The position numbers and the translations under genes were made by a program. From sequence record OR567511.1: a stretch of 64,000 nucleotides of DNA. One strand, given 5' to 3'. Each line of letters begins with the position of its first letter. Within the stretch, counting starts at the first letter, position 1. This document shows positions 5,245 to 62,780 of the stretch, in pieces. This DNA comes from Enterobacter phage vB_Ent31. The notes under the pieces are model-generated. The model was not told the origin of the DNA, made no database searches, and saw only the letters and a list, made by a program, of their open reading frames with translations.

Positions 5245-5274
5245 ATTTTATCATACTTTGTAGAGAAAGTAAAC
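5245..5274 (-). promoter_or_regulatory. T4-type early promoter GTTTAC-N18-TAAAAT (TGa extended -10)
   Basis: Read on the minus strand: GTTTACTTTCTCTACAAAGTATGATAAAAT, upstream of the 128-aa ORF. Confidence 0.55.
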
Positions 5275-5297
5275 AACAAAGGGCCCGAAGGCCCTTT
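5275..5297 (-). terminator. Intrinsic terminator GGGCC-UUCG-GGCCC followed by UUUGUUGUUU
   Basis: UUCG-tetraloop hairpin plus U-rich tail right after the SGNH-hydrolase stop. Copy 1 of 4 of this element. Confidence 0.7.
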
Positions 5298-5299
5298 CA

Positions 5300-6835
5300 T
5301 TATACTTTACCTTGCAGAACGTTAGTGAACTGCGAACCACGCCAGAAGTAGCCTTGGTCATTCGGGTGAACGTTATCGCTTGAGGTATACAGATTTGCGT
5401 TCTCTGCAGTAACCCAACCTTTAACATCTACGAACTCTAAGTCTAACTCAGTAGTAAGTTCAATCAGTGCGTCACGAATCGCTGCGATTTGGTCAGTCAT
5501 TCCAAGAGGAGTTGCTGGTCCAAATACGATAATTTTAGCTTGTGGCTGATATTGCTTAATCAGAGCAATAGACTCTCTGAAGTTAGTTTTAAGCAAATCA
5601 ATTCTGCCAGCCGGAGCGTCATTATAGCCTAAAGCTAAAGTAATGATATCCGGAGTAAAACTCAGAGTTGCAAGCTTAGCTGTGATACGAGCTTGAGGCT
5701 GAGTTGAGTTTGTTGAAGTCCAACCAGAACCACCGATACCATCAGCTAATCCAACTAAACCAAGCTTATCACAATAGAAACGGAAGTCGTTAAACGACGC
5801 CTGAGTTGCCATTGTACCGAAAGTGTAAGAGTCACCAAGCTGCCAAATCATCTTAGCCGGACGAGTAATCGCAGTGATAGTTTTTCCAGTATCAACATAA
5901 ATTCCACCAAAGGCAGTATTCACGCCAACAAGAGAATATTCACGCATTTGCTCAACACCGTTCCAATCGATGCTATAGATGTAAACTGCACCAGAAGAAT
6001 CAGTAGTGACTGAAGTTGCAGAAATACGCTGTCCATCTACATAAAGATCATACTTGGAGTTATTGCCAGCGAGTTTGAAATCAATTTTGCTTGAATCGGT
6101 TTTGAAATTAACTCGGCATTGAGTTCCGTTGCCGGTACCATTTCCTCTGAACCCAGAAACTGCGTCTTTGATATCAGAACCCCAATAAGTGATTTTAGCA
6201 TCAGTACGAGCAATCGTTACACCAGCATAAATCGTTGAAGCTACACCAGCATTAGTTGTTACAGTGAATTTAGCACCTGTGCCAGTTCCGCCTGTCGCTG
6301 AAATTTCACCGGTAGGAGCAGTTGCGTACACACCAGGTTTGCGAATTTGAGCTGTTGTAATTGCGCCATCAGCACCTACAGCAGTTACTCGAATCTGTCC
6401 AGGAACATCTCCTTCTGCTCCGGGGATATCAACAATATCTCCGAACACATATCCAGTACCACCAGAAATTATAGTAGCAGTTCCAGATAATCCAACGCCT
6501 TTAATCAATTTTTGAGTAGGCGGATTTGACATTACCGCAACCGGTTGAAGCATTGGTCCTAACGGCGGTTGAGGGTCTGGAACATCTACAGTATATTCGC
6601 TTAATGTGTATTGATAACCATTTTTAGATTCAATGAAATTAACTTCACCATAATCTACATAAGCTTGTTTGAGAGTATCAATTTGAGGGGCATATTGAGG
6701 GTCAGCGTATTCACGCCAATCTTTACCTTCTTCCTTGGCTTTAATAAGGATGTTATGAATCCACCAAGGAAGGTAAAGAAAACTTGTATTACGCCACGGA
6801 ATAGGATGTACCGTGGTCCAAATATCTATAGCCAT
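5300..6835 (-). CDS. SGNH/GDSL-family hydrolase with a large N-terminal Gly/Thr-rich beta-rich domain (511 aa)
   Basis: C-terminal blocks GDSYTFG (GDS-x), GYND and DNVHPN (D-x-x-H) are typical of SGNH esterases/lipases. The N-terminal ~350 aa are Gly/Thr/Ala-rich and look like a carbohydrate-binding or Ig-like region. Confidence 0.6.
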   Translation of the reverse strand: MAIDIWTTVHPIPWRNTSFLYLPWWIHNILIKAKEEGKDWREYADPQYAPQIDTLKQAYVDYGEVNFIESKNGYQYTLSEYTVDVPDPQPPLGPMLQPVAVMSNPPTQKLIKGVGLSGTATIISGGTGYVFGDIVDIPGAEGDVPGQIRVTAVGADGAITTAQIRKPGVYATAPTGEISATGGTGTGAKFTVTTNAGVASTIYAGVTIARTDAKITYWGSDIKDAVSGFRGNGTGNGTQCRVNFKTDSSKIDFKLAGNNSKYDLYVDGQRISATSVTTDSSGAVYIYSIDWNGVEQMREYSLVGVNTAFGGIYVDTGKTITAITRPAKMIWQLGDSYTFGTMATQASFNDFRFYCDKLGLVGLADGIGGSGWTSTNSTQPQARITAKLATLSFTPDIITLALGYNDAPAGRIDLLKTNFRESIALIKQYQPQAKIIVFGPATPLGMTDQIAAIRDALIELTTELDLEFVDVKGWVTAENANLYTSSDNVHPNDQGYFWRGSQFTNVLQGKV

Positions 6836-6866
6836 AATGTTCTCCTTATAGTCTATAGATATTTAT

Positions 6867-7079
6867 TTAAGCTTTACTAAAGAAAGGATGCTCATGGATA
6901 AAATTATGAGGCCAAGCGGCCAAAGAACGAGCATTGCGCTTTAATTGACGTAATTGTCGGCGAGTTAATGGAGTTGAAGTATAGCTTGAAATTGTACGCT
7001 TATTAATTTTGACTGAAGTCATAAAAGTCAAATCTTTGCGGTACGGATGTTTGCCAAAACTCTTTTTAATTTCCATCAT
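6867..7079 (-). CDS. Hypothetical basic protein (70 aa)
   Basis: ORF with ATGA overlap to the upstream lipoprotein gene. Confidence 0.45.
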   Translation of the reverse strand: MMEIKKSFGKHPYRKDLTFMTSVKINKRTISSYTSTPLTRRQLRQLKRNARSLAAWPHNFIHEHPFFSKA

Positions 7080-7336
7080 TCAAACCTAATTGTAGAGTTC
7101 TTAAAGAACATACCAGAGCAAACAGCACCCTTGACAGGAATACCCGTAGGACCTTTAGCAGTGAAACCTGTAGAGAAAGCATCTTTATCACAACTCAGCC
7201 ATGCGTAACCTGTGAATTCAATTTCGCTAAATCCATTAGCTTTAAGAATACGCTCTGCGCCTGTTTCATCTGTGCAACTAGACAGAATACCAATAGATAG
7301 AATAGCTGCAATCAAACCCATTACAAACACTTTCAT
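7076..7336 (-). CDS. Predicted lipoprotein (86 aa)
   Basis: Signal peptide MKVFVMGLIAAILSIGILSSC with a lipobox (LSSC). Confidence 0.6.
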   Translation of the reverse strand: MKVFVMGLIAAILSIGILSSCTDETGAERILKANGFSEIEFTGYAWLSCDKDAFSTGFTAKGPTGIPVKGAVCSGMFFKNSTIRFE

Positions 7337-7428
7337 TTCTTGGTTACCTTAATAATTTTGCCGCTATGAAGTTTAATAACCCGGCTTTCGCCGGATTTCA
7401 TGAATTTAATACGTGGACGCGTACCCAT
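7333..7428 (-). CDS. Tiny basic ORF (31 aa)
   Basis: ATGA overlaps at both ends (FmdB ORF stop and lipoprotein start). Not in the ORF track. Confidence 0.25.
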   Translation of the reverse strand: MGTRPRIKFMKSGESRVIKLHSGKIIKVTKK

Positions 7429-7604
7429 TAATAGTCACCACTTTTAAGTCCATCATAATGAACTGCCGGAGCAGAAACTACTCGTTTCATTTCGCCTTCG
7501 CAATTCAAGAATTTGCATGGCTGCGGATTATCGCGCTCAGAAATTTTAACATTCTTTTCTGATTTTTCACCACAAGCTTCGCATTGATAATCATACAATG
7601 GCAT
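7428..7604 (-). CDS. FmdB-family zinc-ribbon protein (58 aa)
   Basis: MPLYDYQCEACGEKSE...CKFLNCEG matches the MPxYxYxCxxCG...C-x-x-C signature of the FmdB/zinc-ribbon regulatory family. Not in the ORF track (<60 aa). Confidence 0.5.
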   Translation of the reverse strand: MPLYDYQCEACGEKSEKNVKISERDNPQPCKFLNCEGEMKRVVSAPAVHYDGLKSGDY

Positions 7605-7938
7605 TGACAGCCTCCGACCACTTTTTAGTTTTAAGATGAAGTTGACGATTCAACTCTTCGGTAACTGCAAGAGCAACTTCTTCATGAGAAGCTCCGTCCA
7701 TTTTATCACGCATATGCAACCAAAGAGCATCAATTACACAATTAATTACATCTGCGCATTCGCCAGCAAAGATTTCCTTCTGGCGATGAGGACGATTAAT
7801 CCAATCACACATTTCACCAGTTTCAGAAGAAAGCTGTAACATTACGGATGTGATGTTGCGCCATGGTTTACGTTCGGTATAATTAGCCGAAACACGAAGT
7901 ACTGGAGTGATATCTAATACTTGCATTATTTCTTCCAT
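7591..7938 (-). CDS. Hypothetical protein, possibly a MazG-like all-alpha NTP pyrophosphohydrolase (115 aa)
   Basis: Acidic-helix motifs (SETGEM...ECADVINCVIDAL) reminiscent of MazG/HisE; weak. Confidence 0.4.
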   Translation of the reverse strand: MEEIMQVLDITPVLRVSANYTERKPWRNITSVMLQLSSETGEMCDWINRPHRQKEIFAGECADVINCVIDALWLHMRDKMDGASHEEVALAVTEELNRQLHLKTKKWSEAVNAIV

Positions 7939-8603
7939 TTCATAGTTTTGAGAATTTCAATAGCTTGTTTTCGTTCAAATTCACTTTCAATTCTGAACAC
8001 CATTGTGCCTTCAACTTCTGCATTCCACTCTTCATCTTCAGAAATATTTTCAATCTCATCTTCAAGAGTCATTTCTTCATCTTCGAAAAAGTGTTCGTTA
8101 ATAAATCCAGGATGAACCACGTCAAAGTATTTAAGTTCAGATTTAACTAAAGCGAAATTAAGCACTTGAAGAGTTCCAGTTACGTCACGGAACGAAATTC
8201 TTTTAGTGCGAGAATAACCACAAGTATAGTCAACAACTTCTACAGTAAATGGCTTTGTTCCTACACTTAAAGCCCAACGCTTATTGATTGGACTAAGAGC
8301 AACAAAAGAATGCAAATCTTTGCAACGATATACTGTTCCTGGAACCCATTCTGATGATTTTTCGACAACATCAAAATAATTAGATTCTTTATCATAAAGA
8401 TAAAAGAACTCTGGCGAACGAGTTCCATCTGCCATTACAGCCTCAGAAACGTCCTTTCCATCCATGGCCGCAACAGTAAATGAGCCTCCATGAATTTCAA
8501 TAAAGCGGCTAATATCTTCGTTATACGGCTCTAATTTAACAAATGAATCTTCTAATTCTGGGTCAAGACGGTAAGTTAATCCAAGTTTATATTCTGTGGC
8601 CAT
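7926..8603 (-). CDS. Hypothetical protein (225 aa)
   Basis: Long ORF with an acidic C-terminus. Confidence 0.5.
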   Translation of the reverse strand: MATEYKLGLTYRLDPELEDSFVKLEPYNEDISRFIEIHGGSFTVAAMDGKDVSEAVMADGTRSPEFFYLYDKESNYFDVVEKSSEWVPGTVYRCKDLHSFVALSPINKRWALSVGTKPFTVEVVDYTCGYSRTKRISFRDVTGTLQVLNFALVKSELKYFDVVHPGFINEHFFEDEEMTLEDEIENISEDEEWNAEVEGTMVFRIESEFERKQAIEILKTMKWKK

Positions 8604-8821
8604 TAGTAAGTTTCCTTCCAGTATTCTGTGCCATCGTTAGAGATTTGACGGAACATACCATAGATTGGTAGAGCGTCACCAGCGTTTTCATAAACATAAG
8701 CAATTTGGGTGTGCTCAAGGTGACCCGTAACATCTTTCTGAACTACCACTAAGTCTGGGTTGTACAGAGTATCTTCAAATTCGTCACGAGTGATGCCGGT
8801 AATGATAGGTTCGTTTTTCAT
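8603..8821 (-). CDS. Hypothetical protein (72 aa)
   Basis: ORF directly downstream of an early-promoter cassette. Confidence 0.5.
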   Translation of the reverse strand: MKNEPIITGITRDEFEDTLYNPDLVVVQKDVTGHLEHTQIAYVYENAGDALPIYGMFRQISNDGTEYWKETY

Positions 8822-8846
8822 AATTTTTTCCTCATTGGTTTTGATA

Positions 8847-8881
8847 GGGCTATAGTATCATAGCCCTCAAGGAAAGTAAAC
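8847..8881 (-). promoter_or_regulatory. Early-promoter cassette with stem-loop: GTTTAC-N18-TACTAT, hairpin GGGCUAU-GAUACU-AUAGCCC over the -10
   Basis: Minus-strand read: GTTTACTTTCCTTGAGGGCTATGATACTATAGCCC. About 40 bp nearly identical to the cassette at 60219-60253. Confidence 0.6.
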
Positions 8882-8884
8882 GGT

Positions 8885-9337: not shown

Positions 9338-9376
9338 TTAAGAGAATTCAATTCTAACACATTAAGTTAAAGCAGA

Positions 9377-12770: not shown

Positions 12771-12800
12771 ATTCTATAACATCTGATTCCGGTTGTAAAC
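12771..12800 (-). promoter_or_regulatory. Early promoter GTTTAC-N18-TAGAAT
   Basis: Minus-strand read: GTTTACAACCGGAATCAGATGTTATAGAAT, upstream of the srd-like gene. Confidence 0.5.
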
Positions 12801-12802: not shown

Positions 12803-13480
12803 TCAGAATGAAATAAGTTCTACATCATAGATTGTATGCATTCCACCTGGATTGAAATCCACATCCTCAATGCTAGTTACTCGGAACTTCGTTCCGATTG
12901 GCATCATCCATTCCTGTTCATCCTGGACCATGTTGATTTTATTCTTACGGTCAATTTTTGCTAAAGGGTCGTAAGGTGCTGCGCTGAACTCACAATTTGG
13001 AGCTGCGGCTAAAATCTTTAGCATATCTTCCTGATAGTTATAAGCTATCGTAGGGTTAGACCAGCGAATGACTGTCTTGGTCCCATAGCATCCAAAGCTA
13101 GCAAAACTTCTTGCTGTGTTAAAGTCGGTTGAAAAGCTTACAACTCTTTCAGATGTAAAAACCTCTCCAACTTCGACGTTTTGAAGAACATTGAGCATTC
13201 GTCTGTTGACACCACGATAAAGCATTTCAGGAGTAGCAGTTGTCATACGACGGCGGATAACTTTATCCAACCCACGATTAACCCAGTCTTCCACTTTATC
13301 GTTCAAACACTTCCATAGAACTGCTTGTTCTTCATCAGTGAACATCGAGTTAACTTCAGACTCGAGCATTTTACGCTCGACTTCCTCTGAGCCTTCCCAA
13401 TACTCATAGATTCCACCAGAAGGAACTGGTATTGATGGTGTGATTTCTACTTCAATGACAGGACTTTGAAATGATGCCAT
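12803..13480 (-). CDS. Mod/Alt-family ADP-ribosyltransferase (225 aa from Met-12 of the listed ORF)
   Basis: R-S-ExE triad: LYRGV, VVSFSTD, QDEQEWM. RBS GGAGG precedes ATG at 13480. The longer listed ORF start (13513) would run through the early promoter. Confidence 0.65.
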   Translation of the reverse strand: MASFQSPVIEVEITPSIPVPSGGIYEYWEGSEEVERKMLESEVNSMFTDEEQAVLWKCLNDKVEDWVNRGLDKVIRRRMTTATPEMLYRGVNRRMLNVLQNVEVGEVFTSERVVSFSTDFNTARSFASFGCYGTKTVIRWSNPTIAYNYQEDMLKILAAAPNCEFSAAPYDPLAKIDRKNKINMVQDEQEWMMPIGTKFRVTSIEDVDFNPGGMHTIYDVELISF

Positions 13481-13508
13481 GATAACCTCCGTTTGTTTTA
13501 CGGAAGCT

Positions 13509-13538
13509 ATCATAACACAGAAGAGAATGGATGTAAAC
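13509..13538 (-). promoter_or_regulatory. Early promoter GTTTAC-N18-TATGAT (TGt extended -10)
   Basis: Minus-strand read: GTTTACATCCATTCTCTTCTGTGTTATGAT, followed by GGAGG-N5-ATG of the mod-like gene. Confidence 0.6.
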
Positions 13539-18811: not shown

Positions 18812-18829
18812 TATCCTATCCTCATGTTG

Positions 18830-18866
18830 TAGGGCTATTATAACATAGCCCTACCAAAATGTAAAC
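18830..18866 (-). promoter_or_regulatory. Early-promoter cassette GTTTAC-N18-TATAAT (TGt extended -10) with hairpin UAGGGCUAU-GUUAUA-AUAGCCCUA
   Basis: Minus-strand read: GTTTACATTTTGGTAGGGCTATGTTATAATAGCCCTA. Consensus sigma70/T4-early geometry. Confidence 0.65.
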
Positions 18867-18868: not shown

Positions 18869-20311
18869 TTAGAATTTGAGGTCTTCAGCCAATGCATCGA
18901 GTTTAGCTCTTGCACTAGCGTTTTGTTCAACACGAGTCATTCGGTTGCCTTCTGCAACTCGCTGCTGAGCGCCAGAAGTCTCTTTGACTGAAGTTGGTTG
19001 TTCACCATGTTCTTGAGCTATTTCTACCCAACGCTGATTGCCTTTACTTACACCAATCAAGAACTTATTGTTGATGTTCTTGTCGCCATAACGAGACTTA
19101 ATCTGCTTGATGAGCTGTTGACCCTGCTGAGCAAGTTCTTCAGTTTCAATTACCGCTAGCATAAAGTCTGCTGTTGCTGGTAGACCTGCAGATTCTGCAA
19201 CATCACTCATTGAAACATCAGAAGCATCCCAACCTGAACGAGTTGTCTGAGCTGCTGTCCACAAAACAGTTTCAGATTCGACAGCCAGAGCACGAAGTTC
19301 TTCTGCAATAGCTTTAACTAATGTGTAGCTGTTTTCGGTGTAAACCTTGATACGACAAGAAGCACAGATACCCAGATAGTCAATAATGATGACATCAGGA
19401 ACAAAGTTCTTCTTAAGTTTAAGTTCATTCAGTAACGCACGAAACGTATTTGCATGAGCTCCACCGGTTGGATATTGCTTGATAATCAGACGGCCAAGAG
19501 TATTCTTTGAGCGCCATTTTTCCATCTTACCTTTGTATTCAGCATATGAAATGTGGCCATCGTCAATATCATCCAGTGATACATCAAGTAAGTTAGCATC
19601 GATACGTTTTGCACAAACTTCTTCTGCCATTTCCATGGAGATATACAGAACGTTCTTACCCATCTGAAGATAGTCAGCAGCAAGAGAACACAGACCTAAT
19701 GACTTACCAACGTTTACACCAGCGAGTAATACGTTCAGAGTACCAGTCTCTGCACCACCCTTTGTGATTCGATTCAGAATATTGAGTTTGAATGCAACCT
19801 TACGAGCTTTGTTCTGATAAGCCAACCAACGAGCTTCATGGTCTTCCATCCAATCATGACCAATGTAACTATCAAATGAAATTGACAGAGCAGCTCGCAT
19901 GATGTCCGGAATTGCACCTACATCAGGAAGTTTTTTGTTTCGTTTTTCTGGTGGAAGCTGGGCGTTAGTCTGAATTTCAATAATCTTTGATGTTGCGTTG
20001 TACATCGCAGATTCTTGAACGAAACGTTCAGTTTCAGCTACGAGCCAGTTTAAATCTTCTGGAGTATCTTGAAGCTTATTAATTAACTCACTTGCGCCCT
20101 GTACTTCAGTTTCAACTAACTGACTATTATCCAAAGCCACTGTCAATGCAGTTTTACTTGGAACAGCTTGATATTTCAATACGTGCTGATGAATCAGTTT
20201 GAAAACATTTTTGGCTGGGCCATGTTCAAAATACTCATCTCCCATATAAGGCCAAACCTTCGAGAAGAAGGCTTGGTTATACAGCAAATGAGATAAGATT
20301 GTTTCTACCAC
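18869..20311 (-). CDS. 41: Replicative DNA helicase gp41 (DnaB-like), 480 aa
   Basis: Walker A GVNVGKSLGL and a DnaB-like C-terminal domain. Correct T4 position. Confidence 0.85.
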   Translation of the reverse strand: MVETILSHLLYNQAFFSKVWPYMGDEYFEHGPAKNVFKLIHQHVLKYQAVPSKTALTVALDNSQLVETEVQGASELINKLQDTPEDLNWLVAETERFVQESAMYNATSKIIEIQTNAQLPPEKRNKKLPDVGAIPDIMRAALSISFDSYIGHDWMEDHEARWLAYQNKARKVAFKLNILNRITKGGAETGTLNVLLAGVNVGKSLGLCSLAADYLQMGKNVLYISMEMAEEVCAKRIDANLLDVSLDDIDDGHISYAEYKGKMEKWRSKNTLGRLIIKQYPTGGAHANTFRALLNELKLKKNFVPDVIIIDYLGICASCRIKVYTENSYTLVKAIAEELRALAVESETVLWTAAQTTRSGWDASDVSMSDVAESAGLPATADFMLAVIETEELAQQGQQLIKQIKSRYGDKNINNKFLIGVSKGNQRWVEIAQEHGEQPTSVKETSGAQQRVAEGNRMTRVEQNASARAKLDALAEDLKF

Positions 20312-25379: not shown

Positions 25380-25409
25380 ATTATACCACATCCGTGTGGT
25401 AATGTACAA
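25380..25409 (-). promoter_or_regulatory. Early-type promoter TTGTAC-N18-TATAAT (TGg extended) with CCACA-CGGA-UGUGG hairpin in the spacer
   Basis: Minus-strand read: TTGTACATTACCACACGGATGTGGTATAAT. Confidence 0.5.
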
Positions 25410-28173: not shown

Positions 28174-28216
28174 ATTATACTCCGCTCTGCCGATAGCAGA
28201 AAGGGCCCGAAGGCCC
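28174..28216 (-). promoter_or_regulatory. Terminator GGGCC-UUCG-GGCCC (copy 2) fused to a candidate middle promoter TGCTATC-N12-TATAAT upstream of gene 43
   Basis: Minus-strand read: GGGCCTTCGGGCCCTTTCTGCTATCGGCAGAGCGGAGTATAAT. Confidence 0.55.
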
Positions 28217-28219
28217 TCT

Positions 28220-28417
28220 TTAGATTTGTGCAGCTTCGTATTGAACTACGCCTTCTTCGTCTTTCCAATACGCCATGAAAGCGTAACCATCAGGATAAAC
28301 TCGTTTTCCATCTGTAGTCATGGCAGAGCGAAGTTTTTCTTTTTGGCGTTCAATTTGCTCTTCTTTAGTACCTTCAAACATTATGCACCTATCGTGTATT
28401 TTGATTTGAGAGTCCAT
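28220..28417 (-). CDS. Hypothetical protein (65 aa)
   Basis: ORF between regA and gene 43. Overlaps the regA start by 37 nt. Confidence 0.4.
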   Translation of the reverse strand: MDSQIKIHDRCIMFEGTKEEQIERQKEKLRSAMTTDGKRVYPDGYAFMAYWKDEEGVVQYEAAQI

Positions 28418-28746: not shown

Positions 28747-28747
28747 T

Positions 28748-34681: not shown

Positions 34682-34724
34682 ATTATATTCTATACTCCAG
34701 AAAGCAGAAAAGGCCCGAAGGCCC
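34682..34724 (-). promoter_or_regulatory. Degenerate GGCC-UUCG-GGCC hairpin (copy 3) fused to a candidate middle promoter TGCTTTC-N12-TATAAT
   Basis: Minus-strand read: AAAGGGCCTTCGGGCCTTTTCTGCTTTCTGGAGTATAGAATATAAT. Same architecture as the copy upstream of gene 43. Confidence 0.5.
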
Positions 34725-34725
34725 T

Positions 34726-34938
34726 TTAAATTTTACTGTATGTGATAGTTACTTCGGCTTTTGCTTTATCATAGGACGTCTTGATCTGCCTCATCATTTC
34801 AGTCTTGCCGTTATGAATCTTTGCATAATCAATAGCCTTCTCTAAAGCTTTGGCTGAATAAACGGTTCCATTACGTGATACTACACCAGCCTTGGCTACC
34901 GCTGCCACCAGGGTTTCACCATCAGTGTGTCGACCCAT
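34726..34938 (-). CDS. Hypothetical protein (70 aa)
   Basis: ORF only. Confidence 0.4.
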   Translation of the reverse strand: MGRHTDGETLVAAVAKAGVVSRNGTVYSAKALEKAIDYAKIHNGKTEMMRQIKTSYDKAKAEVTITYSKI

Positions 34939-37638: not shown

Positions 37639-37905
37639 TTAGCAGTTTTTGACGTATTCGTAGATAGCACGAGTCAGTTCAGCCGCTTCATCTTTTTCAA
37701 TATCTGAAATCAGAGCATAGATAGCATTAGTGATTGAACTTGGGCGATGACGGGCAGCACTAATTGAAACTTCTGTCATACACGAACGACCACGAAGAAC
37801 AACTTCAACGTTGTTGATTTCAATGTTCATACGTTCTTGACCACGGCTTTCAGAACGAATGAAAACTCCTAACTCGACAGTTACTTTCTTTTTCAGTGTA
37901 ATCAT
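37639..37905 (-). CDS. Hypothetical protein (88 aa from Met-25 of the listed ORF)
   Basis: RBS AAGGAGAG precedes ATG at 37905. The longer listed start would run through the early promoter. Confidence 0.45.
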   Translation of the reverse strand: MITLKKKVTVELGVFIRSESRGQERMNIEINNVEVVLRGRSCMTEVSISAARHRPSSITNAIYALISDIEKDEAAELTRAIYEYVKNC

Positions 37906-37932
37906 GTTACTCTCCTTGGTTGGTGTAAGAGT

Positions 37933-37962
37933 ATAGTAACACCTTCCGCAACGGATGTAAAC
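37933..37962 (-). promoter_or_regulatory. Early promoter GTTTAC-N18-TACTAT (TGt extended)
   Basis: Minus-strand read: GTTTACATCCGTTGCGGAAGGTGTTACTAT. Confidence 0.55.
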
Positions 37963-37974
37963 GGTTGGTAGAAA

Positions 37975-38012
37975 CAAAAATGGGGACCGCTAGGGTCCCC
38001 GAAGATGTGAGC
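37975..38012 (-). terminator. Intrinsic terminator GGGGACC-CUAGC-GGUCCCC followed by AUUUUUGUUU
   Basis: Perfect 7-bp GC-rich stem plus U-run, after the nrdH-like gene and immediately upstream of the early promoter. Confidence 0.7.
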
Positions 38013-45522: not shown

Positions 45523-45947
45523 AGTATTTCTCTCGCTTCAATGATACGAAGTTGTGCTTGCTTGTAAGTATACACTGCTTCTTTTAGTTGAGCATTTGAA
45601 ACTTGAAGATGGTCTTTATACCACTTGTTCAAGTCCTGATGCTTTTTAAAAGTTTCAACCAGTTTGTTATTTGATTCAATTAAAGCTTCTTGAAGTTTAT
45701 CAAAAGTCTTTTCAATAACTTCGCGCTTTACTGAACCGTCATAGTTCAATTTACAAAGAATGTTAGCATGACGCCAAATTTCTCTGAGTTCTCCAAGGAC
45801 GTTTTTCTTATCACCCCAAGTGAACTTATAAAGCTCTTCACAAATAGCTTCCGCCTGCTTTTCTGCTTTACTTTTAGCCATTCCAGCGTAGATATAAGCA
45901 GGAGGATAAAGGGCCGTGTTATCGACCCAGTTAGAAAGAATCAGCAT
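45510..45947 (-). CDS. Hypothetical protein (145 aa)
   Basis: ORF only. Confidence 0.45.
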   Translation of the reverse strand: MLILSNWVDNTALYPPAYIYAGMAKSKAEKQAEAICEELYKFTWGDKKNVLGELREIWRHANILCKLNYDGSVKREVIEKTFDKLQEALIESNNKLVETFKKHQDLNKWYKDHLQVSNAQLKEAVYTYKQAQLRIIEAREILWKS

Positions 45948-46717
45948 ATAACCACCTTAGTTGGACGCTTAAAGAATGAATGAGTGCTATCGTCTTTAGC
46001 ATGTTCAAAAGTTGCAGAGAATTCAATGACTCCACGATAATCCATCGGAACTGCTTTTGGCAGAGAGCCGTAGACCGTTGCACCGTTTTCAAGACGGACA
46101 GTCATTTTGACTTGCATCCCGTAATAATCTTCCCAGCACTTAACTGAGACGACTTTACCTTTAACTACTTGCTTACCAGTAGGTGCTTCGCCTTTGTTCT
46201 TTTTGAACGATTCATACAGTTCATCAAAGAACTTCTTAGAAGCTTCTTGAATAGCTACAAGAATGTTCTTATGAGCTCTGACTTCAACCATCATAACGGT
46301 GGTGAAATCTTCAAGTTCCCAACGTTTGTAAGGTTCACGGACCTCGATAGGATGTCCGTAAAGTTTAAGTTCAACATACATTGCTGCAGTTAAACGAAGT
46401 TTCCACCATCCATGGTCTCTTGTGTACTCTGGTTTGTCAAAGTAATCAAGTTCCGTAACGTATGGAAGATAACTACCAGCGTGATATGCTTCCACTTCGC
46501 CTAAATCATTTTCCCAGAGATAACCATCGAACGGAGCATGTGGACGATCATCAATTCCCCAGGTTGGAGCAACCACCTTATCAAATCCTTCACGACCGTA
46601 GTGGGTCTTCGCCCATCCAGCATTCAATTCCAAAGCGCGTTCTTCAACTTTCGCTCGGCGTGCTGCATGTGCTTTACGATTTTCATCTAAGATTGAGTCG
46701 ATGATTTCAGTTAGCAT
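45941..46717 (-). CDS. Hypothetical protein (258 aa from Met-27 of the listed ORF)
   Basis: RBS GGAGAAACAAA-ATG at 46717. The listed upstream extension contains the early promoter. Confidence 0.5.
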   Translation of the reverse strand: MLTEIIDSILDENRKAHAARRAKVEERALELNAGWAKTHYGREGFDKVVAPTWGIDDRPHAPFDGYLWENDLGEVEAYHAGSYLPYVTELDYFDKPEYTRDHGWWKLRLTAAMYVELKLYGHPIEVREPYKRWELEDFTTVMMVEVRAHKNILVAIQEASKKFFDELYESFKKNKGEAPTGKQVVKGKVVSVKCWEDYYGMQVKMTVRLENGATVYGSLPKAVPMDYRGVIEFSATFEHAKDDSTHSFFKRPTKVVIC

Positions 46718-46747
46718 TTTGTTTCTCCGTTGGTTGATTACGAGACT

Positions 46748-46777
46748 ATCATATACTAACTTTTTAGTGTTGTAAAC
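46748..46777 (-). promoter_or_regulatory. Early promoter GTTTAC-N18-TATGAT
   Basis: Minus-strand read: GTTTACAACACTAAAAAGTTAGTATATGAT. Confidence 0.55.
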
Positions 46778-46847
46778 GGTTGAATGCGGATTCACCAGAA
46801 CGGTTGAGAGGAACTTTCTTGGGAGGGATGATAAATCATATTACGAG

Positions 46848-46878
46848 GATACAAAAATGCCCCAGCGAAGCCGGGGCG
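46848..46878 (-). terminator. Intrinsic terminator CCCCGGC-UUC-GCUGGGG (one G-U) followed by CAUUUUUGUAU
   Basis: Hairpin plus U-run directly after the stop at 46883. Confidence 0.55.
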
Positions 46879-50066: not shown

Positions 50067-50103
50067 TTTGTTCTCCGAGTTTCTATTTGTTTGGTATGAG
50101 GTA

Positions 50104-50133
50104 ATAGTATCATCATCTCATACCGTTGTAAAC
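50104..50133 (-). promoter_or_regulatory. Early-promoter cassette GTTTAC-N18-TACTAT with GGUAUGAG...CUCAUACC inverted repeat over the -10
   Basis: Minus-strand read: GTTTACAACGGTATGAGATGATGATACTATTACCTCATACC. Confidence 0.55.
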
Positions 50134-50400: not shown

Positions 50401-50546
50401 TGGTTTTTCTCCAAATAAGTTTCGATAATTTTCTGGGCGAGATAAACTGCGTTATCTTCGGTTGCATCTTCTAAGAAGCTTTCAAAACATGCTGAAATTT
50501 CTTCTGTGTCAATCAACTTCTTTACTTCAATCGGTGTAGTTTTCAT
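50397..50546 (-). CDS. Small acidic protein (49 aa)
   Basis: ATGA and TAATG overlaps at both ends. Not in the ORF track. Confidence 0.3.
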   Translation of the reverse strand: MKTTPIEVKKLIDTEEISACFESFLEDATEDNAVYLAQKIIETYLEKNQ

Positions 50547-50758
50547 TAGCTTTCCAAAATTTCGTTGATGTAGTAAGGACGAACTGAAGAATTCAGGAAG
50601 AATTCATCTACGAAGTCAATCAGAGCATCTGAAGTACCTTCCAAAACGATGTAATACTTTTCTGAAATTTGCTTTTCAGAAGTGATTTCAACTTTATACT
50701 CCTGTGCTACTGCTTTAGCTTGAGCGATATTTTTAACTACGATTTCTAAAGTTTTCAT
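50546..50758 (-). CDS. Hypothetical protein (70 aa from Met-21)
   Basis: RBS AAGGAGAACAAA-ATG at 50758. The listed upstream extension contains the early promoter. Confidence 0.45.
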   Translation of the reverse strand: MKTLEIVVKNIAQAKAVAQEYKVEITSEKQISEKYYIVLEGTSDALIDFVDEFFLNSSVRPYYINEILES

Positions 50759-50786
50759 TTTGTTCTCCTTTGGTTTTGATAGTGCT

Positions 50787-50816
50787 ATAATACCATATGC
50801 TATAGCATCTGTAAAC
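50787..50816 (-). promoter_or_regulatory. Early promoter GTTTAC-N18-TATTAT (TGg extended) with a palindromic TGCTATAGCA spacer
   Basis: Minus-strand read: GTTTACAGATGCTATAGCATATGGTATTAT. Confidence 0.55.
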
Positions 50817-50837
50817 ACTTTTTGAAAACTTTCTTCA

Positions 50838-50866
50838 AAAACAACAAAACCTCCCGAAGGAGGTTA
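50838..50866 (-). terminator. Intrinsic terminator AACCUCC-UUCG-GGAGGUU followed by UUGUUGUUUUUG
   Basis: UUCG-loop hairpin plus U-rich tail, after the 86-aa membrane protein gene. Confidence 0.65.
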
Positions 50867-54329: not shown

Positions 54330-54619
54330 TGCATTTCCTTAATAGCTTTTAAGAAGTTATCAAGATTCTCTTTACTGCAAAAAGATACGCAGCCATAGCT
54401 TCCGTCTTTTGCTTCAAAAGTAAATGAATCATCACCGTAATCAGTGTAATCAATATTAGGGCATTGATTGAATGCAATCAGATGTGCTTTGTCCAGACGA
54501 AAATGGATTTTGAACAAATCTTCATCGCCTTCATGACCAAGTTTGCAAAAGTTTCCACGTACTTCAAGAACCAGAGGACCATGTACTGAACCGCTTTCAA
54601 ATGTATGTTTCATAATCAC
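54326..54619 (-). CDS. Hypothetical protein (97 aa)
   Basis: ORF with ATGA overlap. Confidence 0.4.
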   Translation of the reverse strand: MIMKHTFESGSVHGPLVLEVRGNFCKLGHEGDEDLFKIHFRLDKAHLIAFNQCPNIDYTDYGDDSFTFEAKDGSYGCVSFCSKENLDNFLKAIKEMQ

Positions 54620-54885
54620 CTCAATTGCGAATCTTTTGAACCGCGTCTGTTGTAAGACGCTTTAATGATAGTGTCATGTGAGCTTTGGCAAGCTACGCAC
54701 CGGGTGCATCCTTTTTGAGCTTTGCGTCTAGCTTCCGGAATTTCTCCGTCGCAATCTTCACAGTATTTTTCACTCTCACGATTTTGAGATTTGATGAGCT
54801 CTAAACGAGCCCATTCAATTCCATCACTTACTGTAGCTTCAATAGCTGCAAATCCGTCGTCACTTGGACCCCATCCACTTGCCAT
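54616..54885 (-). CDS. TraR/DksA-family C4 zinc-finger protein (89 aa)
   Basis: CEDCDGEIPEARRKAQKGCTRCVAC matches the C-x2-C-x17-C-x2-C DksA/TraR zinc finger. Confidence 0.5.
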   Translation of the reverse strand: MASGWGPSDDGFAAIEATVSDGIEWARLELIKSQNRESEKYCEDCDGEIPEARRKAQKGCTRCVACQSSHDTIIKASYNRRGSKDSQLR

Positions 54886-54909: not shown

Positions 54910-54939
54910 ATTATACCATTAACCAAGTTGTATGTAAAC
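54910..54939 (-). promoter_or_regulatory. Early promoter GTTTAC-N18-TATAAT (TGg extended)
   Basis: Minus-strand read: GTTTACATACAACTTGGTTAATGGTATAAT, followed by AAGGAG-ATG of the zinc-finger gene. Confidence 0.6.
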
Positions 54940-54991: not shown

Positions 54992-55450
54992 TTACCAACC
55001 TGCCGTATCAAATTCACCATCATCGTAGATGTCCCAAGCCATTCGTTCTTCCAGAACTCGGACTGGTGTCCAATAGTCCGCATATTCTTGGTCTTCCGGA
55101 GAAGAGAATTTATTTGCTTTAAGTTCAGCCATAAATTCCAAAGCAGATTCAACATCACCGAACAGACGGTTCAAGTTGTGAGGTTTACGTTCAGGGTCTT
55201 CAAATACTGCGTTATCACCCGGGCAAATTTGAGTACGATAAGAACGCTTTGTTTCGCCGTTGATGTCAGTATACTCGCAGATGATATCAACCATCAAGAT
55301 ATCTGATGTTGGACTACGATATGGTTTACTGAGGATAATGTACTTGCTAACTTCATCAAGCGACACAGTAGTTTCAGTACGAGATACACCGTACACATGA
55401 TACATGATGCGGCCTGGAACGAAATCAGATAATTTAGTAATGCGATTCAT
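54992..55450 (-). CDS. Hypothetical protein (152 aa from Met-36 of the listed ORF)
   Basis: RBS GAGGAGAACATC-ATG at 55450. The listed N-terminal extension runs through the early promoter. Confidence 0.45.
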   Translation of the reverse strand: MNRITKLSDFVPGRIMYHVYGVSRTETTVSLDEVSKYIILSKPYRSPTSDILMVDIICEYTDINGETKRSYRTQICPGDNAVFEDPERKPHNLNRLFGDVESALEFMAELKANKFSSPEDQEYADYWTPVRVLEERMAWDIYDDGEFDTAGW

Positions 55451-55478
55451 GATGTTCTCCTCTTGTTTGTGTAAGGTC

Positions 55479-55508
55479 ATAGTATCACCTTTTGAAGAGG
55501 ATGTAAAC
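55479..55508 (-). promoter_or_regulatory. Early promoter GTTTAC-N18-TACTAT (TGa extended)
   Basis: Minus-strand read: GTTTACATCCTCTTCAAAAGGTGATACTAT. Confidence 0.55.
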
Positions 55509-55516
55509 GGTTCCTT

Positions 55517-55552
55517 TAAAACAACAAAAGCCCTGACCAAAAAGTCAGGGCT
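55517..55552 (-). terminator. Intrinsic terminator AGCCCUGAC-UUUUUG-GUCAGGGCU followed by UUUGUUGUUUU
   Basis: 9-bp stem plus U-rich tail right after the stop at 55557. Confidence 0.7.
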
Positions 55553-55556
55553 CAAA

Positions 55557-56468: not shown

Positions 56469-56487
56469 CATGCTCCCCAATTTAACT

Positions 56488-56871: not shown

Positions 56872-56927
56872 ATCTACCTCTTGAGTTAAAGTACCTCAAT
56901 GGTAGTAAAATCCTGCTTTAAAATATT

Positions 56928-57166: not shown

Positions 57167-57193
57167 CAGTAGATAGCCTCGAAGATTTTTACA

Positions 57194-59714: not shown

Positions 59715-59732
59715 GTTTACCTCAAATTAAAG

Positions 59733-60203
59733 CTATAACTTGATAATCTTTGTGCTGATTTTACCTTTCAAGCGTTTATCATTTACAAATGCCATGCGAC
59801 ATTGCATGGAATGACCACGGAACGGATGTTCTGGGTTTGGTAAAGAAACAGTCATTCCAAGCCATAGAGTACCATCTGTGATTTCCAGACGTTGAGGTCT
59901 GTACTCTACTTCTGGGTCAATTTCCGATGGGTCAATTGGAAGCATCGGCATTTCTAAGAACTCGTGAATTTCTGTTACATGTTTGTGTACTTTGTGGAAC
60001 AGAGCGAACACATACTCTTCATCAATTTCTCGCTGGATAGCACGGTCCAGGAGGTGATTAGAATATTTAATAAAGAAAGCTGGAATACCAGCAGATGCGC
60101 AAGCACTACGTATAGAATCGTTTACACTCTTGAATTCAGTCTCAAAGCGACGACGTAGCTTGTTTCGGCGGATGAATACTTCTGGGTTGGTTGTCATTTT
60201 CAA
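59733..60203 (-). CDS. regB: RegB sequence-specific endoribonuclease (156 aa)
   Basis: EVFIRRNKLRR.FE.EF...N..IR.A..AG......KYS.HLLDRAIQREIDE.YVF.LFHK matches T4 RegB. Confidence 0.85.
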   Translation of the reverse strand: MKMTTNPEVFIRRNKLRRRFETEFKSVNDSIRSACASAGIPAFFIKYSNHLLDRAIQREIDEEYVFALFHKVHKHVTEIHEFLEMPMLPIDPSEIDPEVEYRPQRLEITDGTLWLGMTVSLPNPEHPFRGHSMQCRMAFVNDKRLKGKISTKIIKL

Positions 60204-60218
60204 TCTCCTTTGTTGATA

Positions 60219-60253
60219 GGGCTATAGTATCATAGCCCTTGGAGAAAGTAAAT
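60219..60253 (-). promoter_or_regulatory. Early-promoter cassette ATTTAC-N18-TACTAT with hairpin GGGCUAU-GAUACU-AUAGCCC (near-identical repeat of 8847-8881)
   Basis: Minus-strand read: ATTTACTTTCTCCAAGGGCTATGATACTATAGCCC, then AAGGAG-ATG of regB. Confidence 0.55.
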
Positions 60254-60255
60254 AG

Positions 60256-60486
60256 TCAGTAGTTGTGGTCATCGTAGAACACTTGAAGCAGAACATTGCT
60301 GCGCAGCTTCTTGGTGTCAGCGATGCGTTGGCGGAGCTTGGAGATTTTATCCTGAACCGCATTGAAAGCATCAGAAGTCTTAGGGTCGTGAAGACCCATA
60401 GACTCATCCACAAGCTGCTCCATCTTTTCTTCCATAGCATTGATAGCTTCAGAGAAAGACTCGGAGACTTTGTTGCGGATAGACAT
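60256..60486 (-). CDS. Hypothetical protein (76 aa from Met-15)
   Basis: An ATGA overlap with the upstream ORF stop supports the start at 60486. Confidence 0.4.
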   Translation of the reverse strand: MSIRNKVSESFSEAINAMEEKMEQLVDESMGLHDPKTSDAFNAVQDKISKLRQRIADTKKLRSNVLLQVFYDDHNY

Positions 60487-60764
60487 TAATACTTTTCTTC
60501 TGGTTGGAATACTGAACGGCATGCCCACATAGAAGCTTCTTTCAAACGATCAATTGCATTACGAATCTGAGTGATTCTAGAATGAGCTAGATCGAATTCT
60601 TCGTCGCTTATAGTATCAACATCCAAGTCCATGTATACTTTTACATGCTCTTCTTCAAGAGCTTTAAAAATGAGCCCAAGACGAACTTCAGCATCTTTGA
60701 TGGCGTTCACTTTACCGATTTTATCATCGGTATGCGGCTTATAGCCCTTGATATCTTCAATCAT
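60486..60764 (-). CDS. Hypothetical protein (92 aa)
   Basis: ORF only. Confidence 0.45.
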   Translation of the reverse strand: MIEDIKGYKPHTDDKIGKVNAIKDAEVRLGLIFKALEEEHVKVYMDLDVDTISDEEFDLAHSRITQIRNAIDRLKEASMWACRSVFQPEEKY

Positions 60765-60925
60765 TCAGCTTTCCTTAATTTAAAAATTTGACCCGTAGGA
60801 GAAACCATTTTCTGAAGACCCCACGTTTTACCATAACCTGCTTCTTCAGCAGATTTGTAATTGAATGGAGAAGGAGATTCATCCACTTCATCTTCCAATT
60901 CATAATCTTTACGTTCAATTGACAT
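60761..60925 (-). CDS. Hypothetical protein (54 aa from internal Met)
   Basis: RBS GAGGAAATTCCTT-ATG at 60925. Confidence 0.35.
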   Translation of the reverse strand: MSIERKDYELEDEVDESPSPFNYKSAEEAGYGKTWGLQKMVSPTGQIFKLRKAE

Positions 60926-61154
60926 AAGGAATTTCCTCGTCAGTTTCTTTATCATACTCACGAATTTTGATTGGTTCATTAATTCCATAACCACTTACAG
61001 TAAGACCAGTTTTAGCATCTTCCCACTGCATTGTTTTATCATTCCACACACCGTTAGCATGTGCTTCCATTAAATCTTGTTCGCCTTGGTTTGAAAACCA
61101 GCCGCAGAAAGATTCAACCAGGTGGTCGGGGATGTCGATAATAATTTGCGCCAT
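60915..61154 (-). CDS. Hypothetical protein (79 aa)
   Basis: RBS GGAG-N6-ATG. Protein-like composition. Confidence 0.5.
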   Translation of the reverse strand: MAQIIIDIPDHLVESFCGWFSNQGEQDLMEAHANGVWNDKTMQWEDAKTGLTVSGYGINEPIKIREYDKETDEEIPYVN

Positions 61155-61489
61155 GTTGGCTCCAAAGAAATGACCCTGCGGTCGTAAGTAATTAAGCTTG
61201 AAGTTTTGATGCCTTTACAAGGACCAGAGATAAACTCTACTTCAAACCATGAATGCTCATTCATCAGACCAACATCTGGCGAAGTGCAGAGGAATAATGA
61301 GCCTTTAAAAGGTCCATCTAAAAATCGATACAGCTTTGGTTCAAGAACTGCGCCATCTGAAAACTTGATATGCAGAATATTAATCAAAGACTCTACATTA
61401 CATTTTCCAGTAGAACGCAAAAAGCGAATATATTCACCAATTGTCATATCAAGGGCCCGAAGGCCCTTATTAAAATTTTCTTTCATCAT
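61070..61489 (-). CDS. Hypothetical protein (139 aa; alternatively starts at 61450)
   Basis: Overlaps the next gene by 85 nt at its 3' end. A full GGGCCTTCGGGCCC hairpin lies inside codons 8-13. Confidence 0.35.
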   Translation of the reverse strand: MMKENFNKGLRALDMTIGEYIRFLRSTGKCNVESLINILHIKFSDGAVLEPKLYRFLDGPFKGSLFLCTSPDVGLMNEHSWFEVEFISGPCKGIKTSSLITYDRRVISLEPTWRKLLSTSPTTWLNLSAAGFQTKANKI

Positions 61490-62073
61490 TGCATTCCTAT
61501 CACAAAGAACAATGGTAATGCTTCTTTACCCGGAGCGTGAGACTGAGTAATGCAAGCATAAAATGGACCTTTGAAATGGGCTTCATAGAACTTTTCCATT
61601 TCAGGGAGTTTCATTGGTTCTTCTATAATATACAAGATTCTGTTAAGCGTTCGACCGCGAGCCTTTGAACCACCATCACTAAGGAAACTTCTCGTGGTGT
61701 CCATGATTATCATGCGTTTGGCTTCTTCTGGATTTGCTTGATGAATGAGTTCTTTCTCATAACAAGCTCTTATTCTTTTAGCTGTTTCTTCAGAGTTTCG
61801 TTGGTGAGTGCTAATAATCCAGACGGTTCCACCATCATGTAACCAATCTGCTGCAAATTCAGCAACAGCTTTAGTTTTACCTGATTGGCGTCCACCATCG
61901 ATTTTTAGCGTAGCATATTCGCGTAGAATATCTACAGGAGTGTAATGACTTTCTTTGAGGATTTCTATACAATCATCAGCACGGATTTTAAATGCATGCA
62001 TCAGGGATAGATATGGAGCAAATAGAGATTTCATTTTCATAGAGTTACCATTAGTGAGGGCCATCCTTGGCAC
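61486..62073 (-). CDS. P-loop NTPase-like hypothetical protein (195 aa)
   Basis: GGRQSGKT Walker A-like motif. The start codon is uncertain (GTG in the track; weak RBS for the ATGs). Confidence 0.45.
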   Translation of the reverse strand: MPRMALTNGNSMKMKSLFAPYLSLMHAFKIRADDCIEILKESHYTPVDILREYATLKIDGGRQSGKTKAVAEFAADWLHDGGTVWIISTHQRNSEETAKRIRACYEKELIHQANPEEAKRMIIMDTTRSFLSDGGSKARGRTLNRILYIIEEPMKLPEMEKFYEAHFKGPFYACITQSHAPGKEALPLFFVIGMQ

Positions 62074-62310
62074 GCTATAGTCCTTTCGATACCACGTGTA
62101 AACCCCTTACCGCCGCGGGCTGACCTTATTACAGGTGGGAAAGGCCCATTCTTACGAGAGGGTTGGTTCACCTTTTTTACAGCCACCGAGATTGGTGGGA
62201 CCCTGATTGTAACTGGCTTTACCGCACTTGGGCTCGACCTTTTCACAGGTACCAGAAGCTACTTCACTCAGAGGACACGACGTTCATGAGGAGAGGTCCA
62301 GGTTGGCTTT

Positions 62311-62724
62311 TTAAGAGTAGATAGCTACTCCATAATGCTTGTACCACTCAGGACGTTGAGCAATTTTCTCGTTTAAACGTTCTTGAGACAAACGAATAGC
62401 ACGGTCAGTTGGAATATAGTCATTGCACCACTCGGGCGGAATGTCACTAATATCAACTGTTGTGTCTTTTATATTGAAACCTCGTTTCAAACATTCAGCA
62501 ATGATAGCTTCTTGTCGCTTACGAAGAAATTCAAGTTTGTTGTAAAAGAACGTTACATGGCCTGAACCAAGAATAAAGTGTTCAGAAATCTTAAACTGCC
62601 AGACCTTTTTACCATTAGCAATATGCTTACGAACAGCACCGAATACTCGTGGAAGCTCGCGGTATTCGGCAATGAGATGCTGGTCTGCAAGTTCAGAAAC
62701 GAGTGTGAGATTAATGCGAGTCAT
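62311..62724 (-). CDS. denV: Endonuclease V (pyrimidine-dimer DNA glycosylase), 137 aa
   Basis: [37 protein letters not shown] is near-identical to T4 DenV. Confidence 0.92.
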
Positions 62725-62727
62725 AGT

Positions 62728-62780
62728 GTCCTCCGTTTGTTTAGGAGGACATCATATCACAAAATCTCTAGGATGTAAAC
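62728..62780 (-). promoter_or_regulatory. Early promoter GTTTAC-N18-TATGAT, plus a GUCCUCC...GGAGGAC hairpin that sequesters the denV RBS
   Basis: Minus-strand read: GTTTACATCCTAGAGATTTTGTGATATGATGTCCTCCTAAACAAACGGAGGACACTATG. Confidence 0.55.

Follow-up and report, generated by a model that had tools for sequence, protein, structure and literature searches.

We describe a family of promoter elements in a 64,000-nucleotide stretch of the genome of Enterobacter phage vB_Ent31 (sequence record OR567511.1; below, the window), together with the inverted repeats that enclose the -10 box in some of them. Judged by sequence and position, the 14 elements are predicted with near certainty to be early promoters of the T4 type, dependent on sigma-70, in a CC31-like Karamvirus. 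This is a known kind of promoter, on which the nested stem-loop is a real, general and apparently little-described feature. With moderate confidence, and on the basis of modelled structures, we interpret the repeats across the -10 box as the stem-loop of so-called PeSL cassettes compacted into the sigma-70 promoter itself, next to a separate class of early promoters in which promoter sequence would mask the Shine-Dalgarno (SD) sequence. More tentatively, early promoters might double as RNA structural elements whose helices would form solely in transcripts started upstream, so that the behaviour of an RNA would depend on where it was started.

Searching both strands for GTTTAC-N18-TANNAT returned 12 exact matches, 12/12 on the minus strand, compared with 0.21 expected and a maximum of 2 among 100 shuffled sequences (promoters 1 to 5, 7 to 12 and 14; Table 1, where each promoter is given as an interval, either end of which is used below to cite it). 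Two further copies are imperfect, with 1 mismatch at 60224 and 2 mismatches in the -35 box at 25380-25409, while the remaining 1-mismatch matches lie within open reading frames (ORFs), have poor -10 boxes and resemble chance matches. The regular coding-strand element proposed in the original prediction is thereby recovered. Of the approximately 15 copies it announced, all listed sites exist, the total being 14 and the site given as 8851 being 8852. All 14 are intergenic, lie on the minus strand and keep the 18-nt spacing. Downstream of each come a leader of 17-47 nt that is rich in A/C and poor in G, then an SD sequence and an ATG. The TGn said to occur frequently at the spacer end precedes the -10 box in 12 of the 14, the exceptions being 12771 and 46748. 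In sigma-70 terms, the motif reads TTTACA-17-TAnnAT with an extended -10.

The published T4 early consensus has GTTTAC at -36..-31, the -10 box at -12..-7 and a C-rich -3..-1 (PMC1524935; PMC2988021). The window elements share with T4 early promoters (Hinton 2010, PMC2988021; Nolan et al. 2006, PMC1524935) the boxes at these positions, TGn, a C/T-rich -3..-1, the early-gene strand and the location directly before the SD and ATG of early genes and small ORFs. The likeness to T4 early promoters claimed beforehand is thus in agreement with the literature, consensus, strand and position all being as expected. Karamvirus copies differ in carrying aACC just 5' of the -35 box and ATCC after it. Along its entire length, a 12-kb probe from the window aligned at 95-98% identity to Karamvirus genomes (CC31-like Enterobacter phages, Tevenvirinae). 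Colinearity with the CC31 genome begins at base 1 (rIIA), and the window represents the rIIA-proximal 64 kb of a CC31-like Karamvirus, with 97-98% identity. The assignment to T4-type sigma-70 early promoters follows from the window being a Karamvirus early region and from the motif being the T4 consensus. The whole CC31 genome holds 25 motif matches, 25/25 on the early strand. A generic sigma-70 consensus scan gave 44 matches vs 46.6 expected, so that the T4-specific motif alone discriminates. We set +1 at 36 nt past the -35 G because the T4 record's coordinate 'Pe133295' equals its -36 G (133331) minus 36. For the promoters whose start is left blank in Table 1, this rule predicts 12764, 37926, 46741, 50780, 54903 and 55472. 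Transcripts from this start (proximal transcripts) have leaders almost without G until the SD, for example 8822-8845, 37906-37926 and 55451-55472. They are predicted to be unstructured: of the 13 copies folded (all but the degenerate one at 25380), 12 lie at approximately 0 to -3 kcal/mol, and the 12800 copy with its 47-nt leader lies at -7.1. In the UP-like region upstream of -40, a weak a/t consensus exists over the 130 promoters compared below. The window copies vary here, and their -35 box often directly follows coding sequence.

Inverted repeats over the -10 box, announced for at least five copies, were detected at five sites, of which four are stable and the one at 50787 is weak. The four stable ones fold as RNA at -13 to -17.6 kcal/mol (z -4.6 to -5.7), with 0/200 shuffled sequences equally stable. 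Perfect repeats of at least 7 bp are present in 5/13 window copies as opposed to 0.27 in column-permuted promoters (0/2000), a null that keeps the promoter consensus including its dyad. Their right arms end at -1 to +5 relative to the predicted +1, which fits the earlier placement of the hairpin upstream of the start site. The hairpin axis of promoter 9 lies at -11.5. In promoter 2, an outer pair (8827-8846 / 8856-8875, 70% complementary) extends the structure to the SD. The cassettes at 8852 and 60224 are paralogues with 90% identity.

Hairpins confined to the spacer were also seen. CCACA-N4-TGTGG, whose 3' arm forms the extended -10 (TGTGGTA), is found at 25384-25401, in T4 promoters at 2458 and 50973 and in CC31 at 143763, and is nearly identical between T4 and Karamvirus promoters. 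In promoter 7, the spacer hairpin TCCG-TTG-CGGA corresponds to TCTG-TTG-CAGA in phage VPA32 (40033), a double change that keeps the pairing.

To place these repeats in a wider context, promoters from the window, the whole CC31 genome, the T4 early regions and IMG/VR contigs were reduced to a set of 130 at <85% identity. A perfect -10-spanning repeat of at least 7 bp is found in 26/130 vs 3.1 expected (z 13), and one of at least 8 bp in 20/130 vs 0.8 expected. The 26 carriers show at least 18 unrelated arm sequences (among them AAGGCCAT, GAGGACA, GGGACCA, GGTAGAG, GGTGTAAGAT, TGATGAGGTA, TTTGTAGGAGAC and ATGGGCTCAT), with loops of 6 to 23 nt, and the AGGGCTAT arm pairs with its partner in three different registers. 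An axis at -11.5 is common to 14/26. It is shared because the consensus itself supplies the inner three helix pairs (T/A, G.U or A/U, T/A; columns 20-22 with 29-31). When all 127 distinct promoters are aligned without gaps, a 10-bp helix about this axis has 55.6% of cells paired vs 51.5 +/- 0.9 after shuffling (0/500) and a covariation score of 0.237 vs 0.190 (0/500), while slid registers reach only 32-45% of cells paired. T4 promoters with such repeats include ipI, motB, cd.3, frd.1 and others. The orthologous frd.1 promoters of T4 (AGGGTAGT/ATTACCCT) and CC31 (AGGGCTAT/ATAGCCCT) keep the same pairing register through two double substitutions and one G.U pair, the latter in T4. Scanning IMG/VR for the bare palindrome gave mostly chance matches in unrelated viruses, with only 13/246 in promoter context.

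Nested repeats are associated with the end of the upstream gene. The gap between upstream stop codon and -35 box has a median of 2.5 nt in nested-repeat promoters (<=10 nt in 81%) and of 25 nt in the others (<=10 nt in 38%; Fisher p 0.00017). A terminator-like hairpin lies <=60 nt upstream of 1/26 nested-repeat promoters vs 22/104 others (p 0.044). In the window, gaps of <=4 nt occur at 8881, 18866, 50133 and 60253, which have nested repeats, at 25409 with its spacer repeat, at 13538 and 62780, where a hairpin joins -10/discriminator and translation initiation region (TIR), and at 12800 with none of these. Gaps of >=25 nt are found at 5274, 37962, 46777, 50816 and 55508, all with upstream terminators, and at 54939 with none upstream. 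Folding exceeds column-permuted nulls on both strands, more so on the sense strand (z -4.6 for -36..+22 and z -3.0 for -30..+6). Stop-codon gap, terminator anticorrelation and sense-strand bias together speak for a stem-loop at the RNA level that is linked to where the upstream cistron ends. Among the options offered in the original prediction, a structure transcribed only on read-through is therefore the best supported.

The stem-loop of a PeSL is a terminator that directly precedes an early promoter (Comeau 2014, PMC4122927; Arbiol 2010, PMC2839356). Like the PeSLs of RB49/phi1, PST/T4 and nt-1/KVP40, the window elements combine early promoter, stem-loop, SD and start codon in compact gaps. 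The proposed resemblance to these cassettes holds for the 5/14 copies with an upstream terminator but not for the -10-spanning repeats. In these 4-5 copies the arms are part of the promoter itself (spacer and discriminator) and enclose the -10 box, and the hairpin is nested, lacks a U-tract and is not the PeSL stem-loop as described. As our preferred explanation, in compact gaps the free promoter positions (spacer -30..-15, discriminator -8..+5) may have been shaped into one or both helix arms. Because its 5' arm is upstream of the promoter's own start, the helix would form only in read-through RNA, where it would mark the 3' side of the upstream cistron. This nested form would be used where the upstream stop abuts the -35 box, so that a separate terminator does not fit, and could act as a barrier to 3' exonucleases (after cleavage in leader or SD), as an attenuator or as an insulator.

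The second class of structures involves the SD itself. At 62780, 13538 and 55508 and in the outer helix of 8852, spacer or discriminator is predicted to pair with SD and AUG and would mask the ribosome site in read-through RNA. For modA (13479..13513), pairing would be limited to read-through RNA, and the T4 modB promoter shows the same pairing of -10/discriminator with SD/AUG. The 5' arm of the denV hairpin consists of the last -10 base, the discriminator and +1, and its 3' arm is the SD. Many promoters have a spacer or discriminator that is complementary to their SD region. CC31 promoters at 64452, 125799, 133853 and 163781 have perfect matches of 12, 11, 10 and 9 nt to their own SD, and the T4 regB promoter (T4 position 62797) has a spacer-SD match of 15 bp including two G.U pairs. 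Over the 130 promoters, the cognate spacer-SD duplex gives -5.29 vs -4.16 kcal/mol for non-cognate pairs (p<0.0002), 11/130 lie beyond the 1st percentile vs 1.3 expected, and on 25 promoters the cognate excess has p 0.00015. Excess folding of the -12..+28 region is seen on the sense strand only. The predicted probability of an unpaired SD is 0.24 in read-through RNA vs 0.63 in the proximal transcript. In the read-through context it is 0.23 for promoter-linked genes vs 0.40 for 87 other window genes (p 0.007).

A related arrangement is known from T4 e, soc, 49 and I-TevI, where a hairpin hides the ribosome site in long transcripts and the promoter lies inside the hairpin; only late-promoter cases are listed (PMC3014915). 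The geometry is shared by 62780, 13538, 55508 and the outer helix of 8852, with the 5' arm upstream of the proximal start and the 3' arm covering SD/AUG. In contrast to these late genes (gp55, TATAAATA), the internal promoter here is an early sigma-70 promoter, and rather than a delay, the predicted effect is translation confined to immediate-early transcripts. With the SD masked in read-through RNA, translation of the gene would depend mainly on the transcript from its own early promoter. The e/soc/49/I-TevI gate does not account for the -10-spanning repeats.

Two genes of this class deserve separate mention. In the window, regB (60197-60253) combines a TCTCC/GGAGA spacer-SD match with a nested hairpin; its product cuts GGAG in early SDs, and read-through regB RNA is predicted to hide its own GGAG. 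In case of denV, promoter and leader differ wholly from those of CC31 (64452), yet both can hide the SD, through 8 bp between discriminator and SD in the window and 12 nt between spacer and SD in CC31.

Several points weigh against our interpretation. Our start sites and structures are all predicted, as is the extent of read-through. The 130 promoters are not phylogenetically independent, and the AGGGCTAT arm is found in 9/26 repeat carriers. The anticorrelation of nested repeat and upstream terminator reaches only p 0.04. When -36..-1 is taken alone, no sense/antisense asymmetry exists (z -0.5), and flanking mismatches, which might distinguish RNA from DNA pairing, are about equally G.T (22, expected 16) and A.C (19, expected 15). 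Nested hairpins are not canonical terminators since they lack a U-tract. Swapped upstream regions mask the SD nearly as well (0.36 vs 0.34, p 0.12), indicating that much of the masking results from generically pyrimidine-rich promoter segments and that the spacer-SD subset alone is specific. Finally, we found no account of -10-spanning hairpins in T4 early promoters in the accessible literature and reviews, although older works (Liebig and Ruger 1989; the 1994 T4 book) may describe some.

The palindromes might have no function and simply reflect quasi-palindrome correction, seeded by the consensus dyad (TAT..ATA or TGT..ATA at -11.5), together with gene conversion between cassettes. We regard this as unlikely. 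The consensus already holds a 3-bp dyad at the shared axis, promoters 2 and 13 are close paralogues, and a cassette of approximately 45 nt is found before at least 5 different genes. Ripley's T4 work reportedly implies that templated correction would also yield seemingly compensatory double changes. Such a process is difficult to reconcile with a null that keeps the dyad and still falls far short of the 26 carriers observed, with the number of unrelated arms or with the three registers of the AGGGCTAT arm, and a neutral process would not track the distance to the upstream stop.

A role at the DNA level, with a cruciform or single-stranded DNA hairpin centred on the -10 box that modulates melting and promoter strength or draws recombination and repair proteins and so creates hot spots, also appears improbable to us. 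It would fit arms that are mostly perfect Watson-Crick, the exact centring of 14/26 at -11.5 and the breakage of promoter mosaics and swaps at the conserved boxes. The commonest arm is GGGC/GCCC, and Mosig's T4 deletion endpoints, as cited by Arbiol et al. (PMC2839356), lie at GGGC...GCCC inverted repeats. The symmetry of -36..-1 and the similar numbers of G.T and A.C mismatches leave some probability to DNA-level pairing of strictly upstream repeats. However, a melting role gives no reason for the link to stop-codon distance or the terminator anticorrelation, arms of 7-10 bp with loops of 6-16 nt are poorly suited to extrusion, and both the sense-strand bias at -30..+6 and the G.U pair in the T4 frd.1 helix speak against it. 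Coliphage N4 offers a comparison: its virion RNA polymerase promoters are recognised as hairpins by the phage polymerase and have short 3-nt loops. As in N4, an inverted repeat that could extrude from supercoiled DNA lies just upstream of the start. Unlike N4 promoters, those described here are canonical sigma-70 duplex promoters with the -10 hexamer in the loop.

We consider it quite improbable that the -10-spanning repeats themselves hide the ribosome site in read-through RNA in the manner of T4 e, soc, 49 and I-TevI. At 8852 and at CC31 71138 the hairpin caps a longer helix, at the base of which spacer pairs with SD, and SDs are in general less accessible in read-through than in proximal RNA. 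The SD nevertheless stays open at 50133 and 50816 (0.84 and 0.69). Promoters with a repeat of at least 7 bp proved not more masked than others (0.39 vs 0.32), and scrambling the left arm slightly lowered SD accessibility (0.33), so that this candidate was rejected. That the palindrome is the operator of a dimeric, sequence-specific protein, such as a factor shutting off early promoters, is very improbable: it does overlap the -10 box, GGGCTAT...ATAGCCC occurs three times in the window and the shut-off mechanism is described as unresolved (PMC2988021; PMC3014915), but only approximately 20% of promoters carry a repeat, loop lengths vary from 6 to 23 nt and the arms are wholly different between promoters, which also makes the protein-binding site suggested beforehand unlikely.

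On the more tentative reading that early promoters double as RNA structural elements, their free positions would systematically encode helix arms in two forms, a promoter-nested stem-loop closing the upstream cistron and an anti-SD segment silencing read-through translation, and the e/soc/49/I-TevI principle would extend to early promoters across Tevenvirinae. If the nested hairpin is functional, spacer and discriminator would be under dual constraint as DNA signal and RNA structure in very compact phage genomes, which would explain the base-for-base conservation of some T4-type cassettes across unrelated loci. A functional hairpin would also make it possible to test how long early transcripts that arise by read-through are divided into units of separate stability or translation, and would bear on immediate-early vs delayed-early expression and on RegB-dependent mRNA inactivation. 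For engineering T4-like phages or borrowing their promoters, spacer changes may have post-transcriptional effects. The promoters themselves were to be expected and are useful for correcting gene starts in Karamvirus annotations.

Cassette mobility was analyzed separately. A PeSL-like duplication before unrelated genes is seen in T4-like contigs, where a unit of approximately 45 nt, CCGTTTACTTTCCTTGA-GGGCTATGATACTATAGCCC-TATCAA, precedes at least 5 different genes. In VPA32 and KMB17, promoter 5 (18866) and the next gene are replaced right after aaccGTTTACA, and the denV segment 62072-62783, which is non-homologous to CC31, ends exactly at the -35 box. The KMB17 promoter at 19479, compared with VPA32 21412 and window 50104-50133, is a chimera joined at the -10 box, with the spacer of one type and the discriminator and leader of the other (TACCTC|ataccaaaca), which implies recombination between promoters at conserved boxes. 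Gap edges lie <=60 nt from a promoter in 2/20, 3/22 and 4/30 cases vs approximately 0.6-0.8 at random (p 0.1, 0.02 and 0.008). At 10-14%, this is similar to how often gene boundaries carry a promoter (14%), so that a special shuffling role is at most plausible. The association with gene-order breakpoints raised in the original prediction thus stands for single cases (18866, 25380, 62780) and is overall no stronger than for gene boundaries.

Table 1. Predicted early promoters and associated hairpins or complementary segments in the window (all on the minus strand; starts, targets and structures are predictions).
Feature	Position	Sequence or structure	Predicted start	ATG	Target and remarks
Early promoter 1	5245..5274 (-)	GTTTAC-N18-TAAAAT, TGn	5238	5221	ORF upstream of topoisomerase gene 39
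Terminator hairpin upstream of promoter 1	5279..5296 (-)	GGGCC-TTCG-GGCCC + T-run			PeSL-type stem-loop
Early promoter 2	8852..8881 (-)		8845	8821	drives cef; upstream stop 3 nt from -35
Nested hairpin, promoter 2	8846-8853 / 8860-8867 (-)	AGGGCTAT-N6-ATAGCCCT			-13.1 kcal/mol, z -4.6
Early promoter 3	12771..12800 (-)	no TGn		12717	drives srd; 47-nt leader
Early promoter 4	13509..13538 (-)		13502	13480	drives modA
modA inverted repeat	13479-13492 / 13500-13513 (-)	14 nt, 86%			-10 + discriminator pairs SD + AUG
Early promoter 5	18837..18866 (-)		18830	18811	spackle-like ORF; gene 41 stop 2 nt from -35
Nested hairpin, promoter 5	18829-18838 / 18845-18854 (-)	GTAGGGCTAT-N6-ATAGCCCTAC, 10 bp			-17.6 kcal/mol, z -4.8
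Degenerate early-type promoter	25380..25409 (-)	TTGTAC-N18-TATAAT, TGn	25373	25353	
Spacer hairpin, degenerate promoter	25384-25401 (-)	TACCACA/TGTGGTA			
Early promoter 7	37933..37962 (-)			37905	
Terminator hairpin upstream of promoter 7	37982..38000 (-)	GGGGACC-CTAGC-GGTCCCC + T-run			
Early promoter 8	46748..46777 (-)	no TGn		46717	
Terminator-like hairpin	46859..46877 (-)				~80 nt upstream of promoter 8
Early promoter 9	50104..50133 (-)		50097	50066	drives nrdC.10; upstream stop 3 nt from -35
Nested hairpin, promoter 9	50093-50124 (-)	GGTATGAG...CTCATACC; 8-bp core, 13 nt at 85%, 6-nt central loop			-14.1 kcal/mol, z -5.7
Early promoter 10	50787..50816 (-)			50758	weak 7-bp repeat
Weak 7-bp repeat, promoter 10	50783-50789 / 50801-50807 (-)				z -1.0, not significant
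Terminator upstream of promoter 10	50848..50865 (-)	AACCTCC-TTCG-GGAGGTT + T-run			
Early promoter 11	54910..54939 (-)	discriminator GGACTTCG		54885	DksA-like zinc-finger ORF; discriminator pairs SD region in read-through folds
Early promoter 12	55479..55508 (-)			55450	
Spacer-to-SD pair, promoter 12	55458-55464 / 55495-55501 (-)	TCCTCTT / AAGAGGA, 7 nt, 30 nt apart			
Terminator upstream of promoter 12	55528..55553 (-)	11-bp stem + T-run			
Early promoter 13	60224..60253 (-)	ATTTAC	60217	60197	drives regB; upstream stop 2 nt from -35
Nested hairpin, promoter 13	60218-60225 / 60232-60239 (-)	AGGGCTAT-N6-ATAGCCCT			-13.0 kcal/mol, z -4.9
Early promoter 14	62751..62780 (-)		62744	62724	drives denV; upstream stop overlaps first -35 G
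denV hairpin	62727-62734 / 62744-62751 (-)	TGTCCTCC...GGAGGACA, 8 bp perfect			

Nearly all window genes are on the minus strand, as in the T4 early/middle region, and the genes 3' of the promoters are typical early ones (cef, srd, modA, a spackle-like ORF, nrdC.10, a DksA-like ORF, regB and denV) together with small ORFs of unknown function. In the replication block at 19-37 kb (41, uvsX, 42, 43, 45, 44/62, 46/47, 55), the sole early-type copy is the degenerate one at 25380, whose downstream ORF is missing from CC31. This weak early-promoter content fits middle-mode control since motA and asiA are both present in CC31, and the replication genes are presumably served by MotA-type middle promoters. 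An Rfam scan of the whole window matched 0 families.

ORF starts that run through promoters, as reported earlier, were confirmed for 12803..13513, 37639..37977, 45941..46795, 50546..50818 and 54992..55555. The start called at 13513 is an ATG within the -10 box TATGAT of the modA promoter, resulting from a mechanical ORF call. In the CC31 record, CC31p006 (4835-5302) is likewise over-extended through a promoter.

Near-identical GGGCC-TTCG-GGCCC terminators with a UUCG tetraloop are found on the minus strand at 5279-5305, 28201-28227, 34709-34735 and 61451-61477, and two of these, at 28174-28217 and 34682-34725, have a longer 44-nt repeat of 80% identity in common. A DksA/TraR-like zinc-finger ORF (54616-54885) lies directly behind the promoter at 54939, and many of the promoters have GC-rich discriminators (AGCCCT), a feature that makes host promoters sensitive to DksA/ppGpp.

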